Positions 22,224-33,977 of a stretch of 64,000 bases of DNA are shown here, piece by piece (positions within the stretch are counted from its first letter, which is position 1; every line of letters begins with the position of its first letter). The position numbers and the translations under genes are program-made. Below the pieces are notes generated by a model. The model was not told the DNA's origin and did no database searches. It saw only the letters and a list, made by a program, of their open reading frames with translations. Origin of the DNA: Clostridiales bacterium (GTDB taxonomy: Bacteria; Bacillota; Clostridia; Christensenellales; UBA1242); contig SVIQ01000001.1 in the NCBI GenBank assembly GCA_015069415.1, positions 11,860-75,859 on the forward strand, written 5' to 3'.

Positions 22224-22250
22224 AAAAGAAAGCTTCTCGCTTTCTTTTTT
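22222..22250. terminator. bidirectional terminator
   Basis: AGAAAGC/GCTTTCT hairpin flanked by an A-run and a T-run. Confidence 0.75.
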
Positions 22251-25200
22251 AACCTAATTCGTCTGTGTTGATTGAGTAAATAAAAGTCTTAGTTACAGGT
22301 TTTTTATATGCTTTCTCTACTGCTAGTTTATACAATGCTAATTGCTCTTCATATTTTTTCTTTAAAACTTTAAGCGGAAGTGAAGAAAATTTGTAGTCGA
22401 CAATTACGATTTCATTTTCAAATTCAATGATTAAATCTACTACACCTTGAATTAAAACCTTATCGTTAACGGACGAATTTACAACATTCGAATATGGAAC
22501 ATACATCATAAATTCCGCTTCTTTTCTTAAATTTTGTGCATTTTTTACTAAATTTTGAAGTTTTTTGTGCGCTTTTTCTATTTTTTCATAATCTACGTCT
22601 TCAAAATCACTATTTTTTACATAGTCCGAATTCAAGTCTAACAATTCAAGTGCTTTATGATAATGTGTACCTATTTGAGCCTTATCTTCAGCCTCATATT
22701 GTGCAGATTTTTCAATCCAATCGCGGACTACAAACCTCTCACTTTCACTTTGTTCTTGATTAATTCCAGTAACTGTATTTTTTAATGGAATCTTGAATTT
22801 GTCTTTATTCGAATATTCAAAACCAACACTTAAATCTTCAATTTCTCTTGTTTCAAATTCATCTATCGAATTATTAACGTTTATTTCATCAACTATTTCA
22901 ATATCGCAAAATTCAGTTTCAGTTAACTCATCATTTAATTTTGAAATAAATGGTGAAATGAGCATATTTGAATAATTTGTGAGTTTCAATTCCCCTTCCA
23001 TTAACTTTTTAGGACATTCACCAACAACTATCAACTTATTTTTAGCTCTTGTCAATGCAACATAAAGAAGTCTCATCTCTTCTTTATATCCCTTTTCTTC
23101 ATTTTTTAGATTGATTGCAAACTTTGTAAGACTGTTTGAGCGAGTTCTTTTTGAAGTATCATAAAAATCAAATCCAAGACCAATATCCGCATTGTAGTTT
23201 ATTGTTGAATTATCACCAACATAAGAAAATTGTTTGCTTGCATTATATAAAATTACAACCGGATACTCCAATCCTTTACTTTTATGAATGGTTTGAATCG
23301 TTACACTATCCTCCATATCGTTCGTTGCAAAATCATTACCTTTACCAATGTTACTTGTTACGACCTCGATAAATTCACTAAGCCCCAAAGTTTCTTCCAT
23401 AGGTGTTAACTTTTGCAAAAACTCTTCCAATAGTTTTAATTCTTTTTCGCCGTTTTCTTTTCTAAGTATAAAATATTTTAATTTTTTATCGCTCAAAATA
23501 AATCTAATGAGTTCACCATTCGTTGAAACAAAAGATTTTTTCTTAATGTCTTCTAAAATTTTGAAACCGTTAGCAATTTCTTCTTGCTCTTTGTTCTCAA
23601 CTAAGTTTTCAAAGAATGAAGATTCTTTGTTTCTTATTGATACCACATCTTCAAAATCCAAATTAGTAAGTGACATAAAGGTTGCTAAATAATCAACGTC
23701 ATCAGCTACACCTACTACACATTTTAAAATTGAAATAACAAGCTTTACAATTTCACTCTTTTTTACGTCGAGTTTATTGTTAATGCTTAAAGGTACGGCG
23801 TTCTCTTTCAAAAGATCGATGAGCTCAACAGTGTCAACATCTTTTTCCGACCTTGATAAAATTGCAATATCTTTGTACGTTAAAACTCTTTCTTGTTTCA
23901 AATTTGCATCATAAAACGAAGTCCCAATCAACTTTGAAATTTTATCCAAAACAACCAAAGCCAACGGATTTTCTTTTTTGCTAGATTTTCCAATGTTATC
24001 TTTAACACTGTAAACACCAACATCTAAAGATTTTTCTTCATCATTTTTTACAAGTAAAATTTTCACTTTGTCATCAATTATATCATCGCGTTTAGGTTGA
24101 ATCAAACTTGTATTTTTATAATCAATATCTGCTTTTTTCTTTGTCATCAAATTAGAAAAAACTTGATTTATAAAATTTAAAATTTTCGGATTGCTTCTAA
24201 AGTTCACATTCATATCAAAAGCTGTTCCTAAACTTTGATTATTTTTTAAATCATTATATTTATCTAAGAACCACTCAGGGCTAGAACCTCTAAATCCGTA
24301 AATTGATTGCTTAACATCTCCCACCATAAAAAGTTTTGTGTTTTTTCCAACCAAACTTTTCATAAGTTTATCTTGCAAAGGATTTACATCTTGATATTCA
24401 TCAATGAAAATATAATGATATTTTTCTTGAAGTTCATGTCTTACTTTTTCATTTTTTAAAAGCTTTATCATTAAACGATTTAAATCATTGAAATCAATTA
24501 AATTATTTTTATTTTTTAAATTTTGATAATTTTTTATGAAATTATTTAAAATTTCAATAAAAATATCGAAATAATTTAATATTTTTTGATTATTTTCAAA
24601 TATTTTTTCATTAATATCATTTTCTTCAAAATTTGAAACCAACTTTTTTATTTGATTTTGAGATTGATTTATTTCTTTTAAATCGTCATTTTTATTTAGC
24701 TCACCGCGTGAAAATTCTACAAATTTTATTTGATTTAAAACAGACAAATTGTAATCCAAAGATAAATTTTCATTAAATTCTTCAAGTGAATTATAAAGTG
24801 CTAAAACTTTATCTTTTAATTCTTTTTCACTAGGCAAATTCTCTCTAATTGAACTTTTACAATTTTCAATTTTATTGCAAAGATAATCAACCACAATCTT
24901 CTGAGATTTTTCATTTGAAACATATTCATTTCTTGATTGAAACAAAAACTCTTCATAATTCTCAAGACTGATAATGTTATTGTAAATTTCTAAAATCAAT
25001 GATTTTACATTATCTAAAGATCTAGAATTTCCACCAAACAAATCTAGCAAAATGTTTAATTTATTTTCATCTTTCATGAAATTATCTATAGTAACTTTCA
25101 TTGCTCTAGACATAAAATAATCACGACTTGAATCACTGATAATTTCAATATTTGGAGAAATCTCTAATTCGTAAAAATACTTTCTTATAGTTTTAGAACT

Positions 25201-25509
25201 AAACCCATCAATTGTATCAATGCTTGCAACTTTAACTTGATCTATTAGCGACAAATATTTTTCTTTTTCTGGAGATTTTTCCATCTCTTCGTTAATCTTT
25301 TTTATAAGTCTCTCTTTCATCTCGGTTGCTGCCAAAACAGTAAAAGTTACAACTAGCAAATTCTCTACCGGCACATTATCATTAATAATTAAATTACCAA
25401 TTTTTTCAATCATCACAGTAGTCTTTCCACTACCAGCACCCGCACTTACCAACTGAGTCGAAGCTAATGAGTCTAAGATTTCTTGTTGTGTTTTTTCAAA
25501 CTTTTTCAT
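22249..25509 (-). CDS. addA: ATP-dependent helicase/nuclease subunit A
   Basis: UvrD-like helicase with AGAGSGKTT Walker A and FIDEYQD, plus a C-terminal RecB-type nuclease (GVVDLI...VDYK). Confidence 0.9.
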   Translation of the reverse strand: MKKFEKTQQEILDSLASTQLVSAGAGSGKTTVMIEKIGNLIINDNVPVENLLVVTFTVLAATEMKERLIKKINEEMEKSPEKEKYLSLIDQVKVASIDTIDGFSSKTIRKYFYELEISPNIEIISDSSRDYFMSRAMKVTIDNFMKDENKLNILLDLFGGNSRSLDNVKSLILEIYNNIISLENYEEFLFQSRNEYVSNEKSQKIVVDYLCNKIENCKSSIRENLPSEKELKDKVLALYNSLEEFNENLSLDYNLSVLNQIKFVEFSRGELNKNDDLKEINQSQNQIKKLVSNFEENDINEKIFENNQKILNYFDIFIEILNNFIKNYQNLKNKNNLIDFNDLNRLMIKLLKNEKVRHELQEKYHYIFIDEYQDVNPLQDKLMKSLVGKNTKLFMVGDVKQSIYGFRGSSPEWFLDKYNDLKNNQSLGTAFDMNVNFRSNPKILNFINQVFSNLMTKKKADIDYKNTSLIQPKRDDIIDDKVKILLVKNDEEKSLDVGVYSVKDNIGKSSKKENPLALVVLDKISKLIGTSFYDANLKQERVLTYKDIAILSRSEKDVDTVELIDLLKENAVPLSINNKLDVKKSEIVKLVISILKCVVGVADDVDYLATFMSLTNLDFEDVVSIRNKESSFFENLVENKEQEEIANGFKILEDIKKKSFVSTNGELIRFILSDKKLKYFILRKENGEKELKLLEEFLQKLTPMEETLGLSEFIEVVTSNIGKGNDFATNDMEDSVTIQTIHKSKGLEYPVVILYNASKQFSYVGDNSTINYNADIGLGFDFYDTSKRTRSNSLTKFAINLKNEEKGYKEEMRLLYVALTRAKNKLIVVGECPKKLMEGELKLTNYSNMLISPFISKLNDELTETEFCDIEIVDEINVNNSIDEFETREIEDLSVGFEYSNKDKFKIPLKNTVTGINQEQSESERFVVRDWIEKSAQYEAEDKAQIGTHYHKALELLDLNSDYVKNSDFEDVDYEKIEKAHKKLQNLVKNAQNLRKEAEFMMYVPYSNVVNSSVNDKVLIQGVVDLIIEFENEIVIVDYKFSSLPLKVLKKKYEEQLALYKLAVEKAYKKPVTKTFIYSINTDELG

Positions 25510-28502
25510 TACTCCTCCTCTTTAAAACTGTCTAAATTTATTTTGTTTACATCTCTGCTCTTTACATTCCTTGATGATTTTAAGCACACATGAACATATG
25601 GACAATATTCACAAGGATTGCTAACAGAACTAGGACTAGAATCTATCACTCCAGACTTAATTTCATCTACTGCTTTTTCGCTTACTTTTATGGCATACGA
25701 TTTCAAATCATTCATTTGAGAATTTTCTAATTCTTTATATCCTATTGTTTTGTTTGCCAATCCCTTAGAATTCATCTTAACATTTACAATGTCACTTTTT
25801 TCTCCAGGAACCAATCGTTTATCCAACGCTTTCAAAACATCTTCATCATTGAAGAAAAATCCTTTCATAGAATAAGGATTACCCTCTTCTTTTGTATAGT
25901 TGTTTCTAATAGGTAAATAAAATTCTCCAACAACCTTTTTCCCAGTAATGCGTTCTATTGCATTTGCATACAAAAACAATTGCAATTTGTTGCCGTAGTA
26001 TAATTCTTTTAAACTAGCATCGGCTTTACCGGTTTTGTAATCTACAATTCTAAGTAAATCTCCAAACTCATCAACTCTATCAATTTTTCCAATTATATCA
26101 ACATTTTTTAACTTCAATGAATTTTCTCCACTAAAGTCAAATTCCAATTTTTTGCTGTCTATTTTAAACAAAGAATTTTCATCGATATAATTTAAACCAT
26201 TGATTACTCTTAATGTTTCTTCTTTCAAATTTTTAATTATAGGATTATCGGCATTCAATTTCAATCTCTCATCTTTTGAAATAATTCTCTCAATTTCTCC
26301 ATCTATAAAATTTTGAATTTCTCCAACTTTCTTATCACGTTTGTAATAAACATAAAGAATTTCATGGATGATATTACCTACATCAAGTGACAAAACATCA
26401 TTTTTTAATTCTGGCTTAATTTTTAATAAATTTGTAAGAAAAGAATAAAACGGACATTTAAAATAATTTTCAAGTTGCGAAGCGGAAATTGTTGAAAATT
26501 CTTTAAAAATACTTAAATTTTTAAGATTTTTATTGTTTATTTCCTTATTTTTAATTATTTTTTCAAAAATTTCTTTATTTTCTTTATCGTATTTACAGAT
26601 TGCTTCAATATTATCCCATTCACTCAAGGCTTCATATTTACCATATTCAAATATTGACAAAATAGGTAAATCAAACATTTTCTTTATTCCTAAAATTACT
26701 TCACTTGGATTATGAGAATATGTAACTGTTAGAGCTGATTCAAAAGACGTAATAAGATTATACAACCTCAATCTTGCAAGTCTGTTAATATGTGAAATTG
26801 TCGGACTTAACTTATGAGAAAAATTTAATTTTTCAATTTCAGAATCTAGAATTATTCCACAATCATATTTTGTAGACGGCGCATTTTCATGCGTGCAATT
26901 TACCACATAAAAATCTTTAAATATTTCCATTGAATTGTTAGCATCCACAATCTTTACGCAATCAAGAGACAATGGAAGATTATTAATTTTTACAAGTCCT
27001 CCAACTCTTAAAAATATATCGTAGAATTCTTGCGCTGTTGCATATGGATAAAATTTTAAAATTTCATCAAACAAATTATCTACATTTTCAAATGATTTTT
27101 TAAGCAAAATTGATGTTTGCAAATCTTCATTTGCTAAAGATAATTCAACTAATTGATCATTAAAATTCAAATCCTTTAAAACTTTCTTATATCGATTAAT
27201 AACGTCAAATGCAGTTTCATTTTTAGTGAAATCAAAATATGATAAAAATTCAATTAAAACATTTTTATCTTCTTCAAACTCAACTCCTAAATCATGTTTA
27301 AAGTTTAACTTTCCTTTTAAATTTAAAAAATTTAAACGTTTAATTAAAGATATTTTTCTATCATCTTCAATCATAATAAACGGAGAATTTATTAAATCAA
27401 TTAGATGACAAAGATTGTAACTCTCAAGATTATATTTCATTAAACTTAGTAAAAATTTGTAAAAAACACTTTTATTTAATGAAATTTGCTCATCAATATA
27501 GTAATTTATCTCATATTTTTCAAAAATTTCTTTTATTTTTGTGGACAAGCTTTCCAATCCAAAAACAGCAACACCAAAGTTTTCAAACTTTTGCCCATTA
27601 ATAACTTTGCTTTTAATATCTCTCGCTACAACCTCAATTTCTTGAGATTTGTCTTTACATGAAAAAACCCTAACCTCATCATCCTGCAACTCTTTCTCTT
27701 TGAGATTAGTTGAAAAAACATTATCTTGCAAAAATTGTCTTACATTATTTTCATGTCTTTCACTTGTCTCAATCTCAAATGGAATTTGTCTAATTAATGA
27801 TATATTTCTTAACTGTTCAACAACTTCACTGTTGTAAATATGTTTATTACTTTTCTTTGAATTATAATTAAAAATTTTAACATTATTCTCTAGACTCAAC
27901 TGCTCAATGATTGAATATTCTACCGCAGTAAAATCATCAAATCCTACAAAAACTAAATTTTGATTTTTTCTTCCATCTGAAACACTAAAAACAGATATTA
28001 AAAAGCAATCAGAAGCGTCAAGAAGTCCAGCTTTATTTTTTTCATATTCTTCATAAATTAAAGCCAAGTCTTGAATTTTGTCTTTAAGAGAAATCTCTGA
28101 ACTCTCAAACTTAAGCATCTCTTCTGGTAAAATTTTTGAAGCCTTTAATTGTGCAATTGTATTAAAGATTTCTTCGGCATATGTAAACGAATAAGTTTTG
28201 CTTTTTAGTGTTAAAAGTTTGTCAAAATTTTCATTTAAAATTTTATGAACCAACAACACACTTCCCGTTTTACTTATCTGATTTTCTTTTTTTATCTCCA
28301 CATTTTTCTTTGCAAAACGATTAAGTGTTGAAACTTTAATATTAAACGACGATTCAATATTTAGTCTTTCAAACAAAAATTTTTCCATATAAAGACTTAA
28401 CTTATCTGGAACAATAATTTCAATATTTTCAACGGTTTGAACATACTCCAACAATTCAATTAATGAATCATGAAAAGATGCAACATTTTGAACTTTTATC
28501 AT
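25509..28502 (-). CDS. addB: ATP-dependent helicase/nuclease subunit B
   Basis: Upstream of addA with a 1-nt overlap. C-terminal PD-(D/E)xK (GKIDRVD...IVDYKTG) with Fe-S cysteines (CPFYSF ... CEYCPYVHVC). Confidence 0.85.
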   Translation of the reverse strand: MIKVQNVASFHDSLIELLEYVQTVENIEIIVPDKLSLYMEKFLFERLNIESSFNIKVSTLNRFAKKNVEIKKENQISKTGSVLLVHKILNENFDKLLTLKSKTYSFTYAEEIFNTIAQLKASKILPEEMLKFESSEISLKDKIQDLALIYEEYEKNKAGLLDASDCFLISVFSVSDGRKNQNLVFVGFDDFTAVEYSIIEQLSLENNVKIFNYNSKKSNKHIYNSEVVEQLRNISLIRQIPFEIETSERHENNVRQFLQDNVFSTNLKEKELQDDEVRVFSCKDKSQEIEVVARDIKSKVINGQKFENFGVAVFGLESLSTKIKEIFEKYEINYYIDEQISLNKSVFYKFLLSLMKYNLESYNLCHLIDLINSPFIMIEDDRKISLIKRLNFLNLKGKLNFKHDLGVEFEEDKNVLIEFLSYFDFTKNETAFDVINRYKKVLKDLNFNDQLVELSLANEDLQTSILLKKSFENVDNLFDEILKFYPYATAQEFYDIFLRVGGLVKINNLPLSLDCVKIVDANNSMEIFKDFYVVNCTHENAPSTKYDCGIILDSEIEKLNFSHKLSPTISHINRLARLRLYNLITSFESALTVTYSHNPSEVILGIKKMFDLPILSIFEYGKYEALSEWDNIEAICKYDKENKEIFEKIIKNKEINNKNLKNLSIFKEFSTISASQLENYFKCPFYSFLTNLLKIKPELKNDVLSLDVGNIIHEILYVYYKRDKKVGEIQNFIDGEIERIISKDERLKLNADNPIIKNLKEETLRVINGLNYIDENSLFKIDSKKLEFDFSGENSLKLKNVDIIGKIDRVDEFGDLLRIVDYKTGKADASLKELYYGNKLQLFLYANAIERITGKKVVGEFYLPIRNNYTKEEGNPYSMKGFFFNDEDVLKALDKRLVPGEKSDIVNVKMNSKGLANKTIGYKELENSQMNDLKSYAIKVSEKAVDEIKSGVIDSSPSSVSNPCEYCPYVHVCLKSSRNVKSRDVNKINLDSFKEEE

Positions 28503-28638: not shown

Positions 28639-28803
28639 ATGTCTAACAGTAAACAATGGAGACCTGGTGAAACCGTTCCAGAATCTGCTACTTACGTTGC
28701 TTATGACGCTCAAGGTCATAACGGTGGTAGTCTTTACTTAGAAAAAGGTAAAAGATTCCCTGCAACTCAACATTCAGGTAGCTATTACACTAAAGGTGAA
28801 TAG
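28639..28803 (+). CDS. YjzC-like small protein (54 aa)
   Basis: Not in track (<60 aa). GGAGGTG SD is followed by MSNSKQWRPGETVPESATYVAYDAQGHNGGSLYLEKGKRFPATQHSGSYYTKGE, which resembles the YjzC family (RPGE..P..G.Y). Confidence 0.6.
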   Translation: MSNSKQWRPGETVPESATYVAYDAQGHNGGSLYLEKGKRFPATQHSGSYYTKGE

Positions 28804-29390: not shown

Positions 29391-29481
29391 GGAGAGTTAC
29401 TCAAGAGGTCGAAGAGGCGTCCCTGCTAAGGATGTAGGCGTCGCAAGGCGCGCGAGGGTTCAAATCCCTCACTCTCCGCCA
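29391..29481 (+). tRNA. tRNA-Ser (anticodon GCU), CCA encoded
   Basis: GGAGAGT acceptor, anticodon loop CTGCTAA, long variable arm, GGGTTCAAATCCC T-arm, 91 nt. Confidence 0.9.
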
Positions 29482-29504: not shown

Positions 29505-29535
29505 GGGTTCAAATTTGACACAACTTACTCCGCCA
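29505..29535 (+). repeat. degenerate copy of tRNA-Ser 3' end (scar F1)
   Basis: GGGTTCAAAT...ACTCCGCCA versus the tRNA sequence GGGTTCAAATCCCTCACTCTCCGCCA. Confidence 0.65.
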
Positions 29536-29544
29536 CGAAATCGT

Positions 29545-29579
29545 CCATCCGCACCAATAAGGTATGGGTGGATTTTTTT
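29545..29579 (+). terminator. terminator following scar F1
   Basis: CCATCCGCACC/GGTATGGGTGG hairpin followed by a T7 run. Confidence 0.7.
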
Positions 29580-29649
29580 AATTTTTTACAAATATGCATA
29601 CAAATTTCAATAATATATGTTATACTATACTCGATTAAAGGAGTTGTTT

Positions 29650-30537
29650 ATGGCAGAGTTAAAATTATTTAAAGTTGGTAATGAAGTAAAAGAATTAAAA
29701 TCAAGTAGTGCAACTATTGAGAAAGAATTACAAAACACTATTGAAAAGAACATGTATGATTTTTTTGGTGTTAGGTTTTTACAAAGTGAATATAGAATTG
29801 ATAACGGCAGAATGGATTCTATTGGCATTGATGAAAACAATTGCCCTGTAATATTTGAATACAAATGCCACTCTAACGAAAATGTTATCAATCAAGGCTT
29901 ATTTTATCTAAATTGGCTACTTGAGCATAAAGCCAATTTTAAGTTGTTAGTAATTGAAAAATTAGGAATTAAAGAAGCTGAAGAAATTGATTGGTCTATG
30001 CCAAGAGTTATTTGCATTGCTGGAGATTTTAATAAATATGATGAAGAAGCAATTAAGCAAATCAATAGGAATGTTTCTTTAATTAGATATAAAAAGTATG
30101 AAAACGATTTGTTATTGTTTGAATTATTAAACACAAATACAGTAGCTCCACTTGAAACAGAAAAAGACATTGTTAGTAAAAAACAAGTAGATAAAACTTT
30201 TACTGAACAATACGAAAATGCTCCTGTTAAATTTAAAGACATCTTTAATGAATTAAAAGAGTTCGCGTTAAGTTTGGGTGATGATGTTTCCGATAACACT
30301 TTAAAGTTGTATATGGCTTTCAAAAAAATTAAAAACTTCGCAACGATGGAAATTTATCAAGGGAAAATACTTGTTAATTTTAAATTAAATCCCGACAACT
30401 TCCAATTAACTGATACATTAAGAGATGTTAGAAATATCGGTCATTGGGGTTGCGGAGATTTACAATTAATAATTAAATCTGAAAAAGATGTTGAATTGGC
30501 AAAAACATTATTACAAAATGCTTACGAGGAGAATTAA
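29650..30537 (+). CDS. PD-(D/E)xK nuclease-fold protein (NucS/DUF91-like N-domain) with DUF5655-like C-terminal domain
   Basis: GRMDSIGIDENNCPVIFEYK places D56, E70 and K72, followed by QGLFYLNWL. The C-terminal half (KFKDIFNELKEFALSLGDDV...LYMAFKK) looks DUF5655-like. ATG at 29650 follows AAAGGAG. Confidence 0.6.
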   Translation: MAELKLFKVGNEVKELKSSSATIEKELQNTIEKNMYDFFGVRFLQSEYRIDNGRMDSIGIDENNCPVIFEYKCHSNENVINQGLFYLNWLLEHKANFKLLVIEKLGIKEAEEIDWSMPRVICIAGDFNKYDEEAIKQINRNVSLIRYKKYENDLLLFELLNTNTVAPLETEKDIVSKKQVDKTFTEQYENAPVKFKDIFNELKEFALSLGDDVSDNTLKLYMAFKKIKNFATMEIYQGKILVNFKLNPDNFQLTDTLRDVRNIGHWGCGDLQLIIKSEKDVELAKTLLQNAYEEN

Positions 30538-31359
30538 ATGCTATTAACACAAATTAAAGATAAATTTTACGATGATTTTTTAAAAGAGCCAACCAAAGAC
30601 AAATTGCAACAATTTTTTAAAAACAATTTTGGAGAACTAAATTTTGTTGACTTTAAAGAAACTTGGATACATAAAGGCCATTTAGCAAAAACTATTTTAG
30701 CAATGGCAAACTCAAGAGGAGGAATAATAGTTTTTGGTGTTAAAGAAAATGAAGATCATACAATAACACCAATAGGATTACAAAGTTTTGAAGACAAAGG
30801 AGAAATAGGACAAGAACTTTCAAAATATATAACTCCTAATTTAGATTGGATTGTTTTGGATTTTAATTACGACTCTCCTTTATATGAGGCATCCTTAAAT
30901 ACAAAATTTCAAATTTTAGTAGTTAACGATACACCTGAAAGATTACCTTTTATATCTATGTCAGAAACAACAGGTTTAGATAAAGATGTTATTTATATAA
31001 GAAGAGATACTAAATGCGAAAAAGCTAATTCGGAGGAAATTGAAAACCTTATATCTGCAAAAATTGAAACAATCTTTAAAGAAGATTCAAATATGACATT
31101 AGAAAAACATTTGTCTCAATTAAAATGCTTATATAATGAATTGCCACAAAAAGTTAAAAAATTGGTTCGTAGGTCAGATAGTGTATTGTCTTCTACCTTG
31201 ATGGCATTTGGACAATCGGCATATAAACTACTATATGGTGAAAATGAATATGAAGAGGTTGATAATCCTGACTACCCTGAAGAAACTTACGAAGCATTCA
31301 TTGTTAGAATGATAAAAATGAAAAAACTTAAAATTGAAAAGGTTTTAGATTTAAAATAG
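30538..31359 (+). CDS. stand-alone AlbA_2 / Schlafen-like domain protein
   Basis: ELNFVDFKETW...LAKTILAMANSRGGIIVFGVKEN matches the AlbA_2 core (E.EFK ... AFANt.GG.i.iGv). The ATG directly abuts the TAA of the upstream gene. Confidence 0.6.
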   Translation: MLLTQIKDKFYDDFLKEPTKDKLQQFFKNNFGELNFVDFKETWIHKGHLAKTILAMANSRGGIIVFGVKENEDHTITPIGLQSFEDKGEIGQELSKYITPNLDWIVLDFNYDSPLYEASLNTKFQILVVNDTPERLPFISMSETTGLDKDVIYIRRDTKCEKANSEEIENLISAKIETIFKEDSNMTLEKHLSQLKCLYNELPQKVKKLVRRSDSVLSSTLMAFGQSAYKLLYGENEYEEVDNPDYPEETYEAFIVRMIKMKKLKIEKVLDLK

Positions 31360-31388
31360 GTTATTGAATAAAAATGATACATAAATAT

Positions 31389-31420
31389 GCGGTTCGGTTC
31401 GAGTCCCTAATGCCTCGCCA
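31389..31420 (+). repeat. orphan tRNA 3'-end fragment (scar F2)
   Basis: GGTTCGGTTCGAGTCCCTAATGCCTCGCCA contains a T-loop, acceptor 3' strand and CCA. There is no matching 5' half upstream. Confidence 0.6.
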
Positions 31421-31427
31421 ATCGCAA

Positions 31428-31458
31428 CCTAAATCGAACTTTCGATTTGGGTGTTTTT
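31428..31458 (+). terminator. terminator following scar F2 (also ends the two-gene cassette)
   Basis: CCTAAATCGAA/TTCGATTTGGG 11-bp stem followed by a T-run. Confidence 0.8.
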
Positions 31459-31877: not shown

Positions 31878-33194
31878 TCAACAATCGTTATTAGAGAAAT
31901 TTTTAAATTTTATATTCGGAGAATTGCAGAAGAAATCTGAACTATACGCCTCGTTTGGAACTCTTCCTACTTTTGTATTGTCGCTTTTCCTATCTCTTAA
32001 TTGCTCAACAGGATTTGGAGCTACTTCAAATCGATAATCCCTACCGTAGCCTCTAATATGGAAATCTATAACATTGTGTGATGGTACAATTTCAGGACTA
32101 GGATTTATAATGTTTTGATACAAGAAGAAATTTGCGTCTTTCGGCAGTTGGTTTATGTTTATGTATTCTTCGCAGTCGCCAGTAAATTGAACTGTATTAT
32201 TTAAAATGTTTCTTACATACTCAATATTTTCATGCAATGAAATTGGTTCTGGGAATTCTCCGTCAGGTATAACATCTTGCCAGCTTTTATTTTCATATTT
32301 TTCTAACAACTCACAAGCTTTATGAAGATGGGCAATCTCCATATGAAGATGTTCTTCCCAAATATCTTTTACATATGGATCGGTTTCAGTTAAATAACAT
32401 GACCAATATAAATAACATTCGGTATATTCGTGCCACAACAACATTTCAAGCCATGTCGCACCTGAATCCATTAGTGATTCATATTGTGTAACATGTTCTT
32501 CTTCCACCTGCGAAATTTCCATGTAGAGTTTTCTTGCAAGATCGCTTTTCACAAGATTAGTTACATTCATGTAATAATTCATCGTTTGTTGTTCCGCTGC
32601 AGTGATAATCATTGTGTTAAGCACAGATTGTTTATCCATTTTCTTTGAATTCATTGCAATTTTCACATTGTCTACATTAAGTCTGTGATGAGCAATAGTT
32701 GGTCTACCCGGCATAATTTCCGTATATCTTCCAACCAATCTTTCTGCTTTTATACCTTGCTCCATCTCTAGCAAATTGGAAAAACGATAAAGATGATCAA
32801 AATCTTCAAGTAAGGCAAAATCTAAAGCTTTTTTTACATAGCAATCCGTTTCTCTTTTTGCAAGTTCAGCAGTCAAATCCACCGCCAGCTGTTCATAGCT
32901 TATCGTATGTTCTAAAATACTTTCATTAGCCGGTTTTAACAAAGACAATCTAATTTGTTGTTGTTTTTCAATAGAACGCGTTAGCGCGAGTTCTCTACGC
33001 AAATCATTATTTGTTGTATGCCTAGCAAAATTGTGCGAAAACCAATTTGCTTCAAACTCTGTACCGTTCATTAAGATAATTCTTGCTTTGGTGTAAGGGT
33101 CAACAATGTTCTTGTTGTATGGTTTTGGATAAAGTTGTTTCCAATTCTTGAAACTACTAAATAGATTCATGGGTTTTTCTTTAAATGGATTCAT
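31878..33194 (-). CDS. ferritin-like diiron-carboxylate superfamily protein (family uncertain)
   Basis: Repeated E...ExxH elements (ESILEH, QVEEEHV, EEHLHMEIAHLH). AAAGGAGG SD. Confidence 0.5.
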   Translation of the reverse strand: MNPFKEKPMNLFSSFKNWKQLYPKPYNKNIVDPYTKARIILMNGTEFEANWFSHNFARHTTNNDLRRELALTRSIEKQQQIRLSLLKPANESILEHTISYEQLAVDLTAELAKRETDCYVKKALDFALLEDFDHLYRFSNLLEMEQGIKAERLVGRYTEIMPGRPTIAHHRLNVDNVKIAMNSKKMDKQSVLNTMIITAAEQQTMNYYMNVTNLVKSDLARKLYMEISQVEEEHVTQYESLMDSGATWLEMLLWHEYTECYLYWSCYLTETDPYVKDIWEEHLHMEIAHLHKACELLEKYENKSWQDVIPDGEFPEPISLHENIEYVRNILNNTVQFTGDCEEYININQLPKDANFFLYQNIINPSPEIVPSHNVIDFHIRGYGRDYRFEVAPNPVEQLRDRKSDNTKVGRVPNEAYSSDFFCNSPNIKFKNFSNNDC

Positions 33195-33377: not shown

Positions 33378-33977
33378 TTATTTCTTATTAGTTTTATTTA
33401 AATATTCTTCTACTGCCTTATCTAACGCATTTTCTTCAAGAAGAATTGACTTGTTATGCTTTTTTAGATACTTTGTCCAACTTTTATAAGCAGTAAGTAT
33501 TCCGTTATAAAATTGAATATTAGGTAAAATTTCCACTTTTTGTACATACTTATTGTTTACAAAAACAAAGAACATATAATTAAACATATCGTCAATAAAA
33601 TTAAATGCAAGAATATCTCTGTTTATTGTAGTTGACAAAGCTTCTAACCATTGAGCATATGTCAAAATACCTTTGTAATCATCTTTAGTAAAAGACGATG
33701 TTTTGCGTCTTATATCGTCATCGCACTTTTTCTGAATATCAATTAAATCTGGAGTTTCAGTGAAATTATTCCAAAATTCTAACAAAAAGCTCGCTTCATT
33801 TATGTCTTTATCTCTTCTAAATTGTAAAAATAATGCCACAGCACCAACAACTGCGGTAATAAGCGTAATAACTTCTGCAATCCTACTACCAAGACTTTCA
33901 TCTAAGAGTAACGTAGAAAATAATCCAATACAGATTAAAAATATTGATGAAAATGTAATTAATGATTGTTTCTTCAT
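33378..33977 (-). CDS. hypothetical membrane-anchored protein
   Basis: Two N-terminal TM helices followed by a soluble domain; no motif recognised. Confidence 0.45.
   Translation of the reverse strand: MKKQSLITFSSIFLICIGLFSTLLLDESLGSRIAEVITLITAVVGAVALFLQFRRDKDINEASFLLEFWNNFTETPDLIDIQKKCDDDIRRKTSSFTKDDYKGILTYAQWLEALSTTINRDILAFNFIDDMFNYMFFVFVNNKYVQKVEILPNIQFYNGILTAYKSWTKYLKKHNKSILLEENALDKAVEEYLNKTNKK

Follow-up and report, generated by a model that had tools for sequence, protein, structure and literature searches.

A PDC-S18 nuclease gene and a Schlafen-type gene share a probable integrase-less islet at a tRNA-Ser gene of a Clostridiales bacterium

We describe two adjacent genes in a 64-kb stretch of DNA from a Clostridiales bacterium (64,000 nucleotides (nt) of contig SVIQ01000001.1), the whole of which we call the window. 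Gene A (29650-30537) and gene B (30538-31359), both on the forward strand, lie next to a tRNA-Ser gene, and a preliminary description made from the sequence took them for an undescribed two-gene defence module, consisting of a PD-(D/E)xK nuclease and an AlbA_2/Schlafen-like protein. Our analysis supports neither "undescribed" nor "module". A is a catalogued candidate of the PADLOC database and B is a member of a class of prokaryotic Schlafen proteins (pSlfns) validated in 2025-26, and the two are not a conserved pair; their juxtaposition is particular to a single lineage.

Gene A encodes a protein of 295 aa, with a NucS-fold PD-(D/E)xK nuclease domain (residues ~25-165) followed by a C-terminal DUF5655 domain (185-295). 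We favour the ATG at 29650 over the start at 29617 in the list of open reading frames (ORFs), because homologues are about 295 aa long and begin with MAELKLFK, and AAAGGAG is found at 29637-29643. The stop codon is the TAA at 30535-30537. The nuclease assignment of the preliminary description, NucS-type, is borne out. The block GRMDSIGIDENNCPVIFEYK holds D56, E70 and K72 (codons at 29815, 29857 and 29863), and all three residues are invariant in 77/77 distinct relatives, down to 44% identity. The AlphaFold2 (AF2) model has a mean predicted local distance difference test (pLDDT) score of 69.1, with the nuclease core mostly at 75-89 and residues 1-24 below 50, and its best Foldseek matches in the PDB are NucS/EndoMS (2vld and 5gke, probability 1.0). 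Weaker Foldseek matches include Shedu SduA (8ps5, probability 0.99; 8ti9, probability 0.93), Card1 and FokI-type PD-(D/E)xK domains. The DUF5655 tail, which the preliminary description had recognised as a pattern, is a Pfam match over residues 185-295 (E = 3.9e-11, 43.4 bits for a cutoff of 24). The Pfam NucS_C match (residues 40-94) is sub-threshold, with 17.6 bits for a cutoff of 24, and so is that to the NCBIfam NucS model NF003270, with 18.7 bits for a cutoff of 216. No Pfam match lies N-terminal to residue 40, a profile of A against PDB sequences returns nothing at E <= 10, and no PHROGs family matches.

The family to which A belongs is PDC-S18. The PADLOC model PDLC04946 aligns with residues 1-294 over profile positions 18-322 of 365 (E = 2.5e-123, 409.7 bits), an end-to-end match by hidden Markov model, and two more PDC-S18 models match. 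The PDCs are phage defence candidates of one or several genes, predicted from their position inside BREX, DISARM or type I restriction-modification (R-M) systems ('guilt-by-embedding'; Payne et al., bioRxiv 10.1101/2024.01.29.577857). Most PDCs are untested (PMC12988326), and the candidates tested in PMC12881386 were others than PDC-S18. We found no paper that names PDC-S18, and 'DUF5655' likewise yielded nothing useful. Gene A relatives are found inside type I R-M and BREX systems, the kind of position by which PDCs were defined, but here A is not embedded; it sits at a tRNA-Ser gene with a Schlafen gene abutting its stop codon. With NucS/EndoMS, A shares the PD-(D/E)xK catalytic fold and the D...ExK block. 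It differs in that DUF5655 takes the place of the N-terminal dimerisation/mismatch-binding domain, and in that its context is mobile and of the defence type, not housekeeping. A NucS orthologue is ruled out, by scores below both curated cutoffs and by the absence of the NucS N-terminal domain. Shedu SduA is another PD-(D/E)xK defence nuclease and a structural neighbour of A. Shedu orthology is ruled out as well; A matches no PADLOC Shedu model and has a different domain architecture.

Gene B encodes a protein of 273 aa, with a helical N-terminal leader, a Schlafen/AlbA_2 nuclease domain (residues 33-164) and a family-specific tail (~170-273). Its ATG at 30538 directly abuts the TAA of gene A, as the preliminary description had noticed, and a GAGGAG Shine-Dalgarno sequence (30526-30531, forward strand) can be read 6 nt ahead of this ATG, still within the coding end of gene A. 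The AlbA_2/Schlafen assignment was also right. Pfam SLFN_AlbA_2 (PF04326) matches residues 33-164 over all 118 profile positions (E = 3.3e-15, 57.1 bits for a cutoff of 25.3), and the best Foldseek matches of the AF2 model are SLFN14, SLFN11, SLFN5, SLFN13 and the SAMD9 tRNase domain (probability 0.99-1.0). The model has a mean pLDDT of 73.5; it is confident at residues 11-170 and below 65 in the tail. The Ex4DxK motif reads E33-LNFV-D38-F-K40, and 30/30 relatives, the most distant at 32% identity, have E33, D38 and K40. A third acidic residue, E70, in a GG..GV.E segment, is kept in 26/30 relatives and is Asp in two more; it aligns within one position of the acidic residues of the SLFN13 GVDD. 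The profile of B against PDB sequences gives only weak Schlafen matches, which placed the GG..GV(D/E) acidic position with a register uncertain by one residue. An Ex4(E/D)xK motif is needed for both defence and tRNA cleavage in RorSlfn5 (E15/D20; PMC13056530) and in CbCash (E17/D22; PMC13462974).

B has no HATPase_c_4 and no HTH/winged-helix Pfam match at E <= 1, and instead ends in a tail of about 100 aa, mostly helical and unannotated in Pfam, which agrees with the preliminary description. B thus departs from the COG2865-type proteins (AlbA_2, HATPase_c_4 and winged helix-turn-helix), with which it shares the N-terminal AlbA_2 and, in its relatives, the NCBI product name 'ATP-binding protein'. 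A family search gives 279 matches, mostly from Clostridia. The family is about 270 aa long and in the alignment it is conserved from end to end, including a tail with many invariant residues. When only the tail was searched against 1.84 billion representatives, it was confined to the same ~270-aa family plus fragments; large matches in multiple stretches look like repeats. Because the tail occurs in the B family alone, domain shuffling offers no clue to its function. B has no PADLOC match, and the sole PHROGs family that it matches is a phage 'DNA helicase' family, in the AlbA_2-like N-terminus.

Prokaryotic Schlafen nucleases have been shown to defend against phage (PMC13056530). B resembles the pSlfns RorSlfn5 and EcoSlfn7 (PMC13056530) and Cash (PMC13462974) in the Schlafen/AlbA_2 fold and the Ex4DxK motif, in the order of an N-terminal nuclease and a variable C-terminal domain, and in its association with defence islands and R-M. 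It differs in its C-terminal domain, which is of none of the types Ig-like, DUF262, HisKinase and Csx15. Unannotated domains are fused to 17.2% of pSlfns (PMC13056530), and B fits the pSlfn kind with an unannotated C-terminal domain and a link to R-M (PMC13056530; PMC13462974, Cluster 4), a likeness in architecture and R-M association that we set by the published description. The difference from that kind is that no R-M system adjoins B in the window. The 'TBP-like' domain of some pSlfns (PMC13056530) might be related to the DUF5655 of A, which would be a Rosetta-stone link.

The two genes are carried on a cassette with well-defined ends. The window aligns with the contigs L023 and L024 at 98.1% identity over 1889 bp, exactly 29522-31410 (forward strand), and the flanks are unrelated on both sides. 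A and B are the whole coding content of this portable segment; as the preliminary description stated, it has no methyltransferase, ATPase or integrase gene. The tRNA-Ser gene that adjoins it, the insertion target, is complete (29391-29481, forward strand; anticodon GCT; ARAGORN; Rfam tRNA 53 bits, E = 5.4e-10), and in an Rfam scan of the region it is the sole credible match, the remaining ones being noise. Both ends of the cassette fall inside tRNA-like scars that the preliminary description had proposed as its brackets, which they are, and both scars score above 500/500 shuffles. Scar 1 (29505-29535, forward strand; GGGTTCAAAT...CTCCGCCA) is a degenerate copy of the tRNA-Ser 3' end and contains the left edge at 29522. 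It is the weaker of the two, with a local alignment score of 20 to tRNA-Ser(gct) where the best of 500 shuffles is 18. Scar 2 (31389-31420, forward strand; GGTTCGAGTCCCTAATGCCTCGCCA) is a tRNA 3'-end fragment and contains the right edge at 31410. It scores 24 to the 3' end of tRNA-Ser(tga), with a maximum of 20 in 500 shuffles, and holds the exact T-arm motif GGTTCGAGTCC, found elsewhere in the 64 kb, as an exact copy, only in two real tRNAs. In L023 and L024 the cassette is bordered by an imperfect 15-nt repeat, CCTAACTT[T/C]CCGCCA, and in L023 and L130 the genes upstream of it are like those of phages or mobile genetic elements (HTH_3, Lin1244_N, DUF4417).

Most likely, the locus is a small genomic islet without an integrase, ~1.9 kb long, which has inserted at the tRNA-Ser(GCT) 3' end. 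A second tRNA-Ser islet, with other cargo, is found in L025 (1347-4030). There, a tRNA-Ser 85% identical to that of the window precedes a Ymh-HEPN gene (PD-Lambda-3_B-like), a gene A relative and a PDC-S32 gene (AbiJ_NTD4), and at the far border the tRNA 3' end is repeated exactly, in direct orientation, over 12 nt (CTCTTCCCGCCA); after this repeat comes a hairpin terminator homologous to that at 31424-31458 in the window. Both resemble tRNA-integrated islands, with an insertion beside a tRNA gene and a tRNA 3'-end repeat at the far border, except that neither the cassette nor the L025 islet has an integrase gene. The tRNA-Ser gene thus looks like a recurrent hotspot of integrase-less defence islets. 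Looking up the flanking genes exactly in search of an 'empty' tRNA-Ser site returned either the same arrangement (L131) or nothing. We also observe a YjzC gene next to the L025 islet, and a YjzC-like ORF of 54 aa just upstream of the window tRNA (28639-28803, forward strand).

Are A and B linked beyond this cassette? Our sample for gene A consists of 80 metagenome and 11 viral loci, together with plasmid matches and the contigs of the closest relatives; that for gene B consists of 22 genome loci, again with plasmid matches and the contigs of the closest relatives. Over all these loci, with flanks of at most 6-8 kb, each gene was sought beside the other by tblastn. B loci were counted if they had at least 1 kb upstream, and A loci if they had at least 900 bp downstream, leaving out L023, L024 and L130. 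These three are the only loci where A and B occur together, each 98-99% identical to the window. Outside the 98%-identical copies, A stands beside B in 0/29 B loci with adequate flank, and B stands beside A in 0/72 A loci. The A-B pair is one 98%-identical cassette known from two contexts. The preliminary description had itself named a failure of linkage elsewhere as refuting a two-gene module, and these counts show just such a failure; its view of A and B as one operon, and as defence-associated island cargo at a tRNA gene, is upheld. In gene A relatives, the gap from the stop codon of A to the start of the next gene is ~12 nt or less, whichever gene follows. Since A packs equally close against many unrelated genes, the tight junction is not specific to A and B, and the TAA|ATG is operon packing, no sign of an obligate partnership.

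An obligate A+B defence system, for example a sensor with its effector, or a DNA nuclease that licenses a Schlafen RNase, would agree with the abutting stop and start codons and the Shine-Dalgarno sequence within A, and with a 1.9-kb cassette that moves whole between two unrelated contexts with promoter and borders shared. It has been put forward, as speculation, that R-M-linked Schlafens might sense DNA cleavage products (PMC13462974). Co-occurrence is nil outside the one lineage, however, and A is as closely packed in the company of other genes. The next-closest relatives tell the same story on either side. Those of B (63-67% identity; L122, L125 and L127) accompany type I R-M, type IIG R-M or a helicase, all without A. 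Those of A (88-94%) are found after a D12 methyltransferase (L027) or, in L025, between Ymh-HEPN and PDC-S32, without B. We regard an obligate pair as quite improbable.

Gene A relatives recur in operons of several restriction types. One such arrangement is D12 methyltransferase-A-DpnII endonuclease, whose upstream neighbours form a cluster of 15 loci and whose downstream neighbours form one of 12. ATPase_2/DUF234-A-N6_Mtase occurs in 6-7 loci; in 10 loci a PLD/ResIII/DUF3427 protein comes after A, and two (L048 and L050) have BrxB-A-BrxC; in one further neighbourhood type, a DUF4143 ATPase comes directly before A. On a Cupriavidus plasmid (L121; NZ_CP038637.1, 76388-89317) the order is hsdM-hsdS-A-hsdR, and A is annotated as 'DUF5655 domain-containing protein'. 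The embedding in BREX and type I R-M on which the PDC collection is based is thus found again for PDC-S18 in our loci, together with embedding in type II and other R-M-like operons. Relatives of A occur on plasmids, on viral contigs and in tRNA islets, a patchy and mobile distribution, and in several A loci the flank is free of R-M genes. In L033 (225-3068) and in at least 11 similar loci (L034-L042, L047, L028), gene A relatives of 74-78% identity have a D12-class adenine methyltransferase on one side and a DpnII-family endonuclease on the other. Such loci are an embedded gene within a type II R-M operon, a class of system that the guilt-by-embedding screen left out.

For gene B, type I R-M is found in 8/22 genome loci, typically as hsdM-hsdS-B-hsdR or variants of it, and in addition in L122, with the order hsdM-hsdS-B-hsdR on an integrase/Mob element. 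B also comes after BpuJI plus a C5 methyltransferase, and its relatives stand beside GmrSD_N/HNH, ApeA-HEPN, AAA_21 or PHP-AAA proteins, or PDC-S34. In L125 (1303-8481) a B homologue of 63% identity comes after a 1197-aa Eco57I/MmeI-like methyltransferase. R-M genes are missing from the flanks of several B loci, and a few have housekeeping neighbours. NCBI product names for B relatives are 'ATP-binding protein' and 'helix-turn-helix domain-containing protein'. The slot between hsdS and hsdR is held by A on the Cupriavidus plasmid or by B in Clostridia, in different genomes. The A and B families are embedded cargo of restriction-type operons, and the proximity of homologues to defence genes that the preliminary description had made a point to check is found for both: they recur within or beside R-M, BREX or other defence genes.

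Four of the B loci have features of their own. In L125, a 241-aa protein of no known kind and a 647-aa HATPase_c_3 protein also flank the B homologue, and the locus may be a larger uncharacterised system. In L127 (325-3974), the B homologue (P0004, 67% identity) comes directly after a 913-aa superfamily 1 (SF1) helicase with a weak match to PF09848 (SLFN-g3_helicase); the arrangement resembles, in split genes, the nuclease-plus-helicase layout of the mammalian group III Schlafens. In L009 (5296-14893), from Ruminococcus flavefaciens ATCC 19208, four genes lie between hsdS and hsdR of a type I R-M operon: B, the gene of a PDC-S34 protein, and two ORFs (267 and 170 aa) without annotation. In L001 (148-2109), two ORFs, of 176 and 92 aa, together make up a B homologue (65% identity), probably frameshifted or a pseudogene, right after a GmrSD_N/HNH type IV restriction-like gene.

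These neighbourhoods invite a comparison with PrrC, an ABC-ATPase plus HEPN protein. The gene of this anticodon nuclease, a suicide enzyme that targets RNA, sits within a type I R-M operon (EcoprrI), and relatives of B likewise lie between hsdS and hsdR. The likeness is one of position only, because B has neither the ABC-ATPase nor the HEPN domain. By analogy, A and B could be accessories or guards of restriction, silenced by the R-M complex and released by phage anti-restriction; at this locus they would then be orphaned, and hence inactive or dependent on R-M genes in another part of the genome. That both families recur in R-M and BREX operons, and both in the hsdS-hsdR slot, agrees with this, as do the almost exclusive embedding of PrrC in type I R-M (bioRxiv 10.1101/2024.01.29.577857) and the proximity of over half of the defence-linked Schlafens to R-M or other nucleases. 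But the R-M partners are a mixture of type I, type II, type IIG and BREX, which makes a specific docking partner unlikely, and we have seen loci of both families without R-M in the flank. The cassette itself is kept at 98% identity, with ORFs and catalytic residues intact, in two contexts free of R-M, and among the PADLOC matches listed (25/59 families) the 64-kb window beyond the islet has no strong R-M match. A role as guards is in our view unlikely.

The same neighbourhoods bear on whether the genes have to do with defence at all. A could be a NucS-related nuclease of repair or recombination, and B an AlbA-like nucleic-acid-binding protein or regulator. One may cite for this the NucS-fold match of A, the NCBI names of B relatives, the few B loci with housekeeping neighbours, and the 30.4% of pSlfn genes that have no defence neighbour (PMC13056530). 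Yet A lacks the NucS N-terminal domain and scores below the curated NucS cutoffs of both Pfam and NCBIfam, and B has kept its nuclease motif and has no HTH or ATPase domain. Both families are patchy and mobile, on plasmids, viral contigs and tRNA islets, and they occur within R-M and BREX operons. We give a function outside defence very little probability.

We think it probable that A and B are two independent, co-transcribed single-gene defence candidates, stacked in an integrase-less tRNA-Ser islet. This reading builds on the folds, motifs, operon layout, cassette borders, embedding in R-M and BREX, and missing A-B linkage observed above. As to substrates, triggers and defence activity, we infer that A would be a DNA endonuclease, with DUF5655 as a part for regulation or for the recognition of nucleic acid or of a trigger. 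B would be a latent tRNase which, once switched on, would halt translation in the manner of abortive infection, by analogy with RorSlfn5 and Cash; its tail may be the sensor or regulatory part that activates it, as in other pSlfns.

Several points weigh against this reading. PDC-S18 and the pSlfn subfamily of B are defence genes by prediction, and 2/4 pSlfn architectures tested in E. coli gave no protection (PMC13056530), so membership in the pSlfn class is no guarantee of defence. The AF2 models are of moderate quality (pLDDT 69.1 for A and 73.5 for B, with the B tail below 65). Relatives of B usually accompany a restriction system and none is nearby here, so that B may lack a partner it needs. 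The loci were retrieved by short peptide patterns and some contigs are redundant, so the co-occurrence counts are not those of a random sample, and tblastn would miss distant analogues of either gene. Finally, A and B move together in two different contexts and their junction is unusually tight, which is compatible with a young functional partnership. In one form of such a partnership, the A-B unit would be a recent composite of functionally coupled nucleases, and it could also spread without an integrase by recombining at repeats that resemble the tRNA-Ser 3' end. DNA cleavage or DNA-end sensing by PDC-S18 would then replace the usual restriction enzyme and license the Schlafen tRNase. This we hold to be doubtful, with a small chance of being right.

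Under the reading of two independent candidates, the locus is an ordinary defence islet of two catalogued families. It is also a compact and, as far as its predicted promoter goes, natively promoted unit of ~1.9 kb, suited to the study of PDC-S18 and of an R-M-associated pSlfn with an unannotated tail. Both families appear as interchangeable cargo of the same slots (hsdS-hsdR, methyltransferase-endonuclease of the DpnII type, BrxB-BrxC and tRNA-Ser islets), a pattern that supports the idea of embedded genes as autonomous defence genes, and an integrase-less cassette bounded by tRNA 3'-end repeats is documented in two contexts. Should A and B be interdependent, they would exemplify a Schlafen RNase rewired so that a stand-alone nuclease takes the place of the restriction system, and a coupled composite would be a minimal, portable, 'restriction-free' version of the layered defence of R-M plus Schlafen.

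An intrinsic terminator (31424-31458, forward strand) ends the A-B transcript; a scan finds it at 31427-31452 plus the T-run, and its fold has -14.5 kcal/mol (z = -5.4). The preliminary description called it the pair's own strong terminator, which is correct as to a terminator and not as to its owner. Because it lies outside the cassette common to L023 and L024, and is homologous to the hairpin that follows the direct repeat, the displaced tRNA-Ser 3' end, in L025, it is most likely the native terminator of the tRNA-Ser gene, displaced by the insertion. We rejected the idea that this hairpin (at 31427) travels with the mobile cassette, as it lies beyond the shared segment.

Upstream of gene A, a promoter-like region (29585-29626, forward strand) can be read from the sequence, with TTTACA (29585-29590), AATAAT and an extended -10, TGTTATACT (29618-29626). 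A promoter scan scores TTTACA-18-AATAAT at 10/12. The extended -10-like element that the preliminary description assigned to the pair is present, but as a promoter it is not statistically distinguishable from chance, with 13 promoter-like sites found by the scan in the region where 16.2 are expected; the predicted A-B promoter is plausible only. Between scar 1 and this promoter, the cassette carries a terminator-like hairpin with a T7 run (29543-29580, forward strand), which a consensus terminator scan did not pick up. Its RNA fold has -17.9 kcal/mol (z = -3.9). The L023 copy has -19.3 kcal/mol (z = -5.7), and the pairing survives two substitutions. The hairpin would shield the operon from read-through of the tRNA gene.

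The islet is flanked by housekeeping genes, AddAB to the left and glycosyltransferases to the right. AddA and AddB on the left flank (22249-28502, reverse strand) account for the Cas4 and GajB matches of PADLOC in the window, and the PADLOC families listed for the window (25/59) are of the kind expected from AddAB. Between the islet and the glycosyltransferase cluster, we observe a 438-aa ORF without Pfam, PADLOC or PHROG match (31878-33194, reverse strand) and a DUF4760 membrane-like protein with a marginal Csx23 match (33378-33977, reverse strand), both of which could be further variable cargo.

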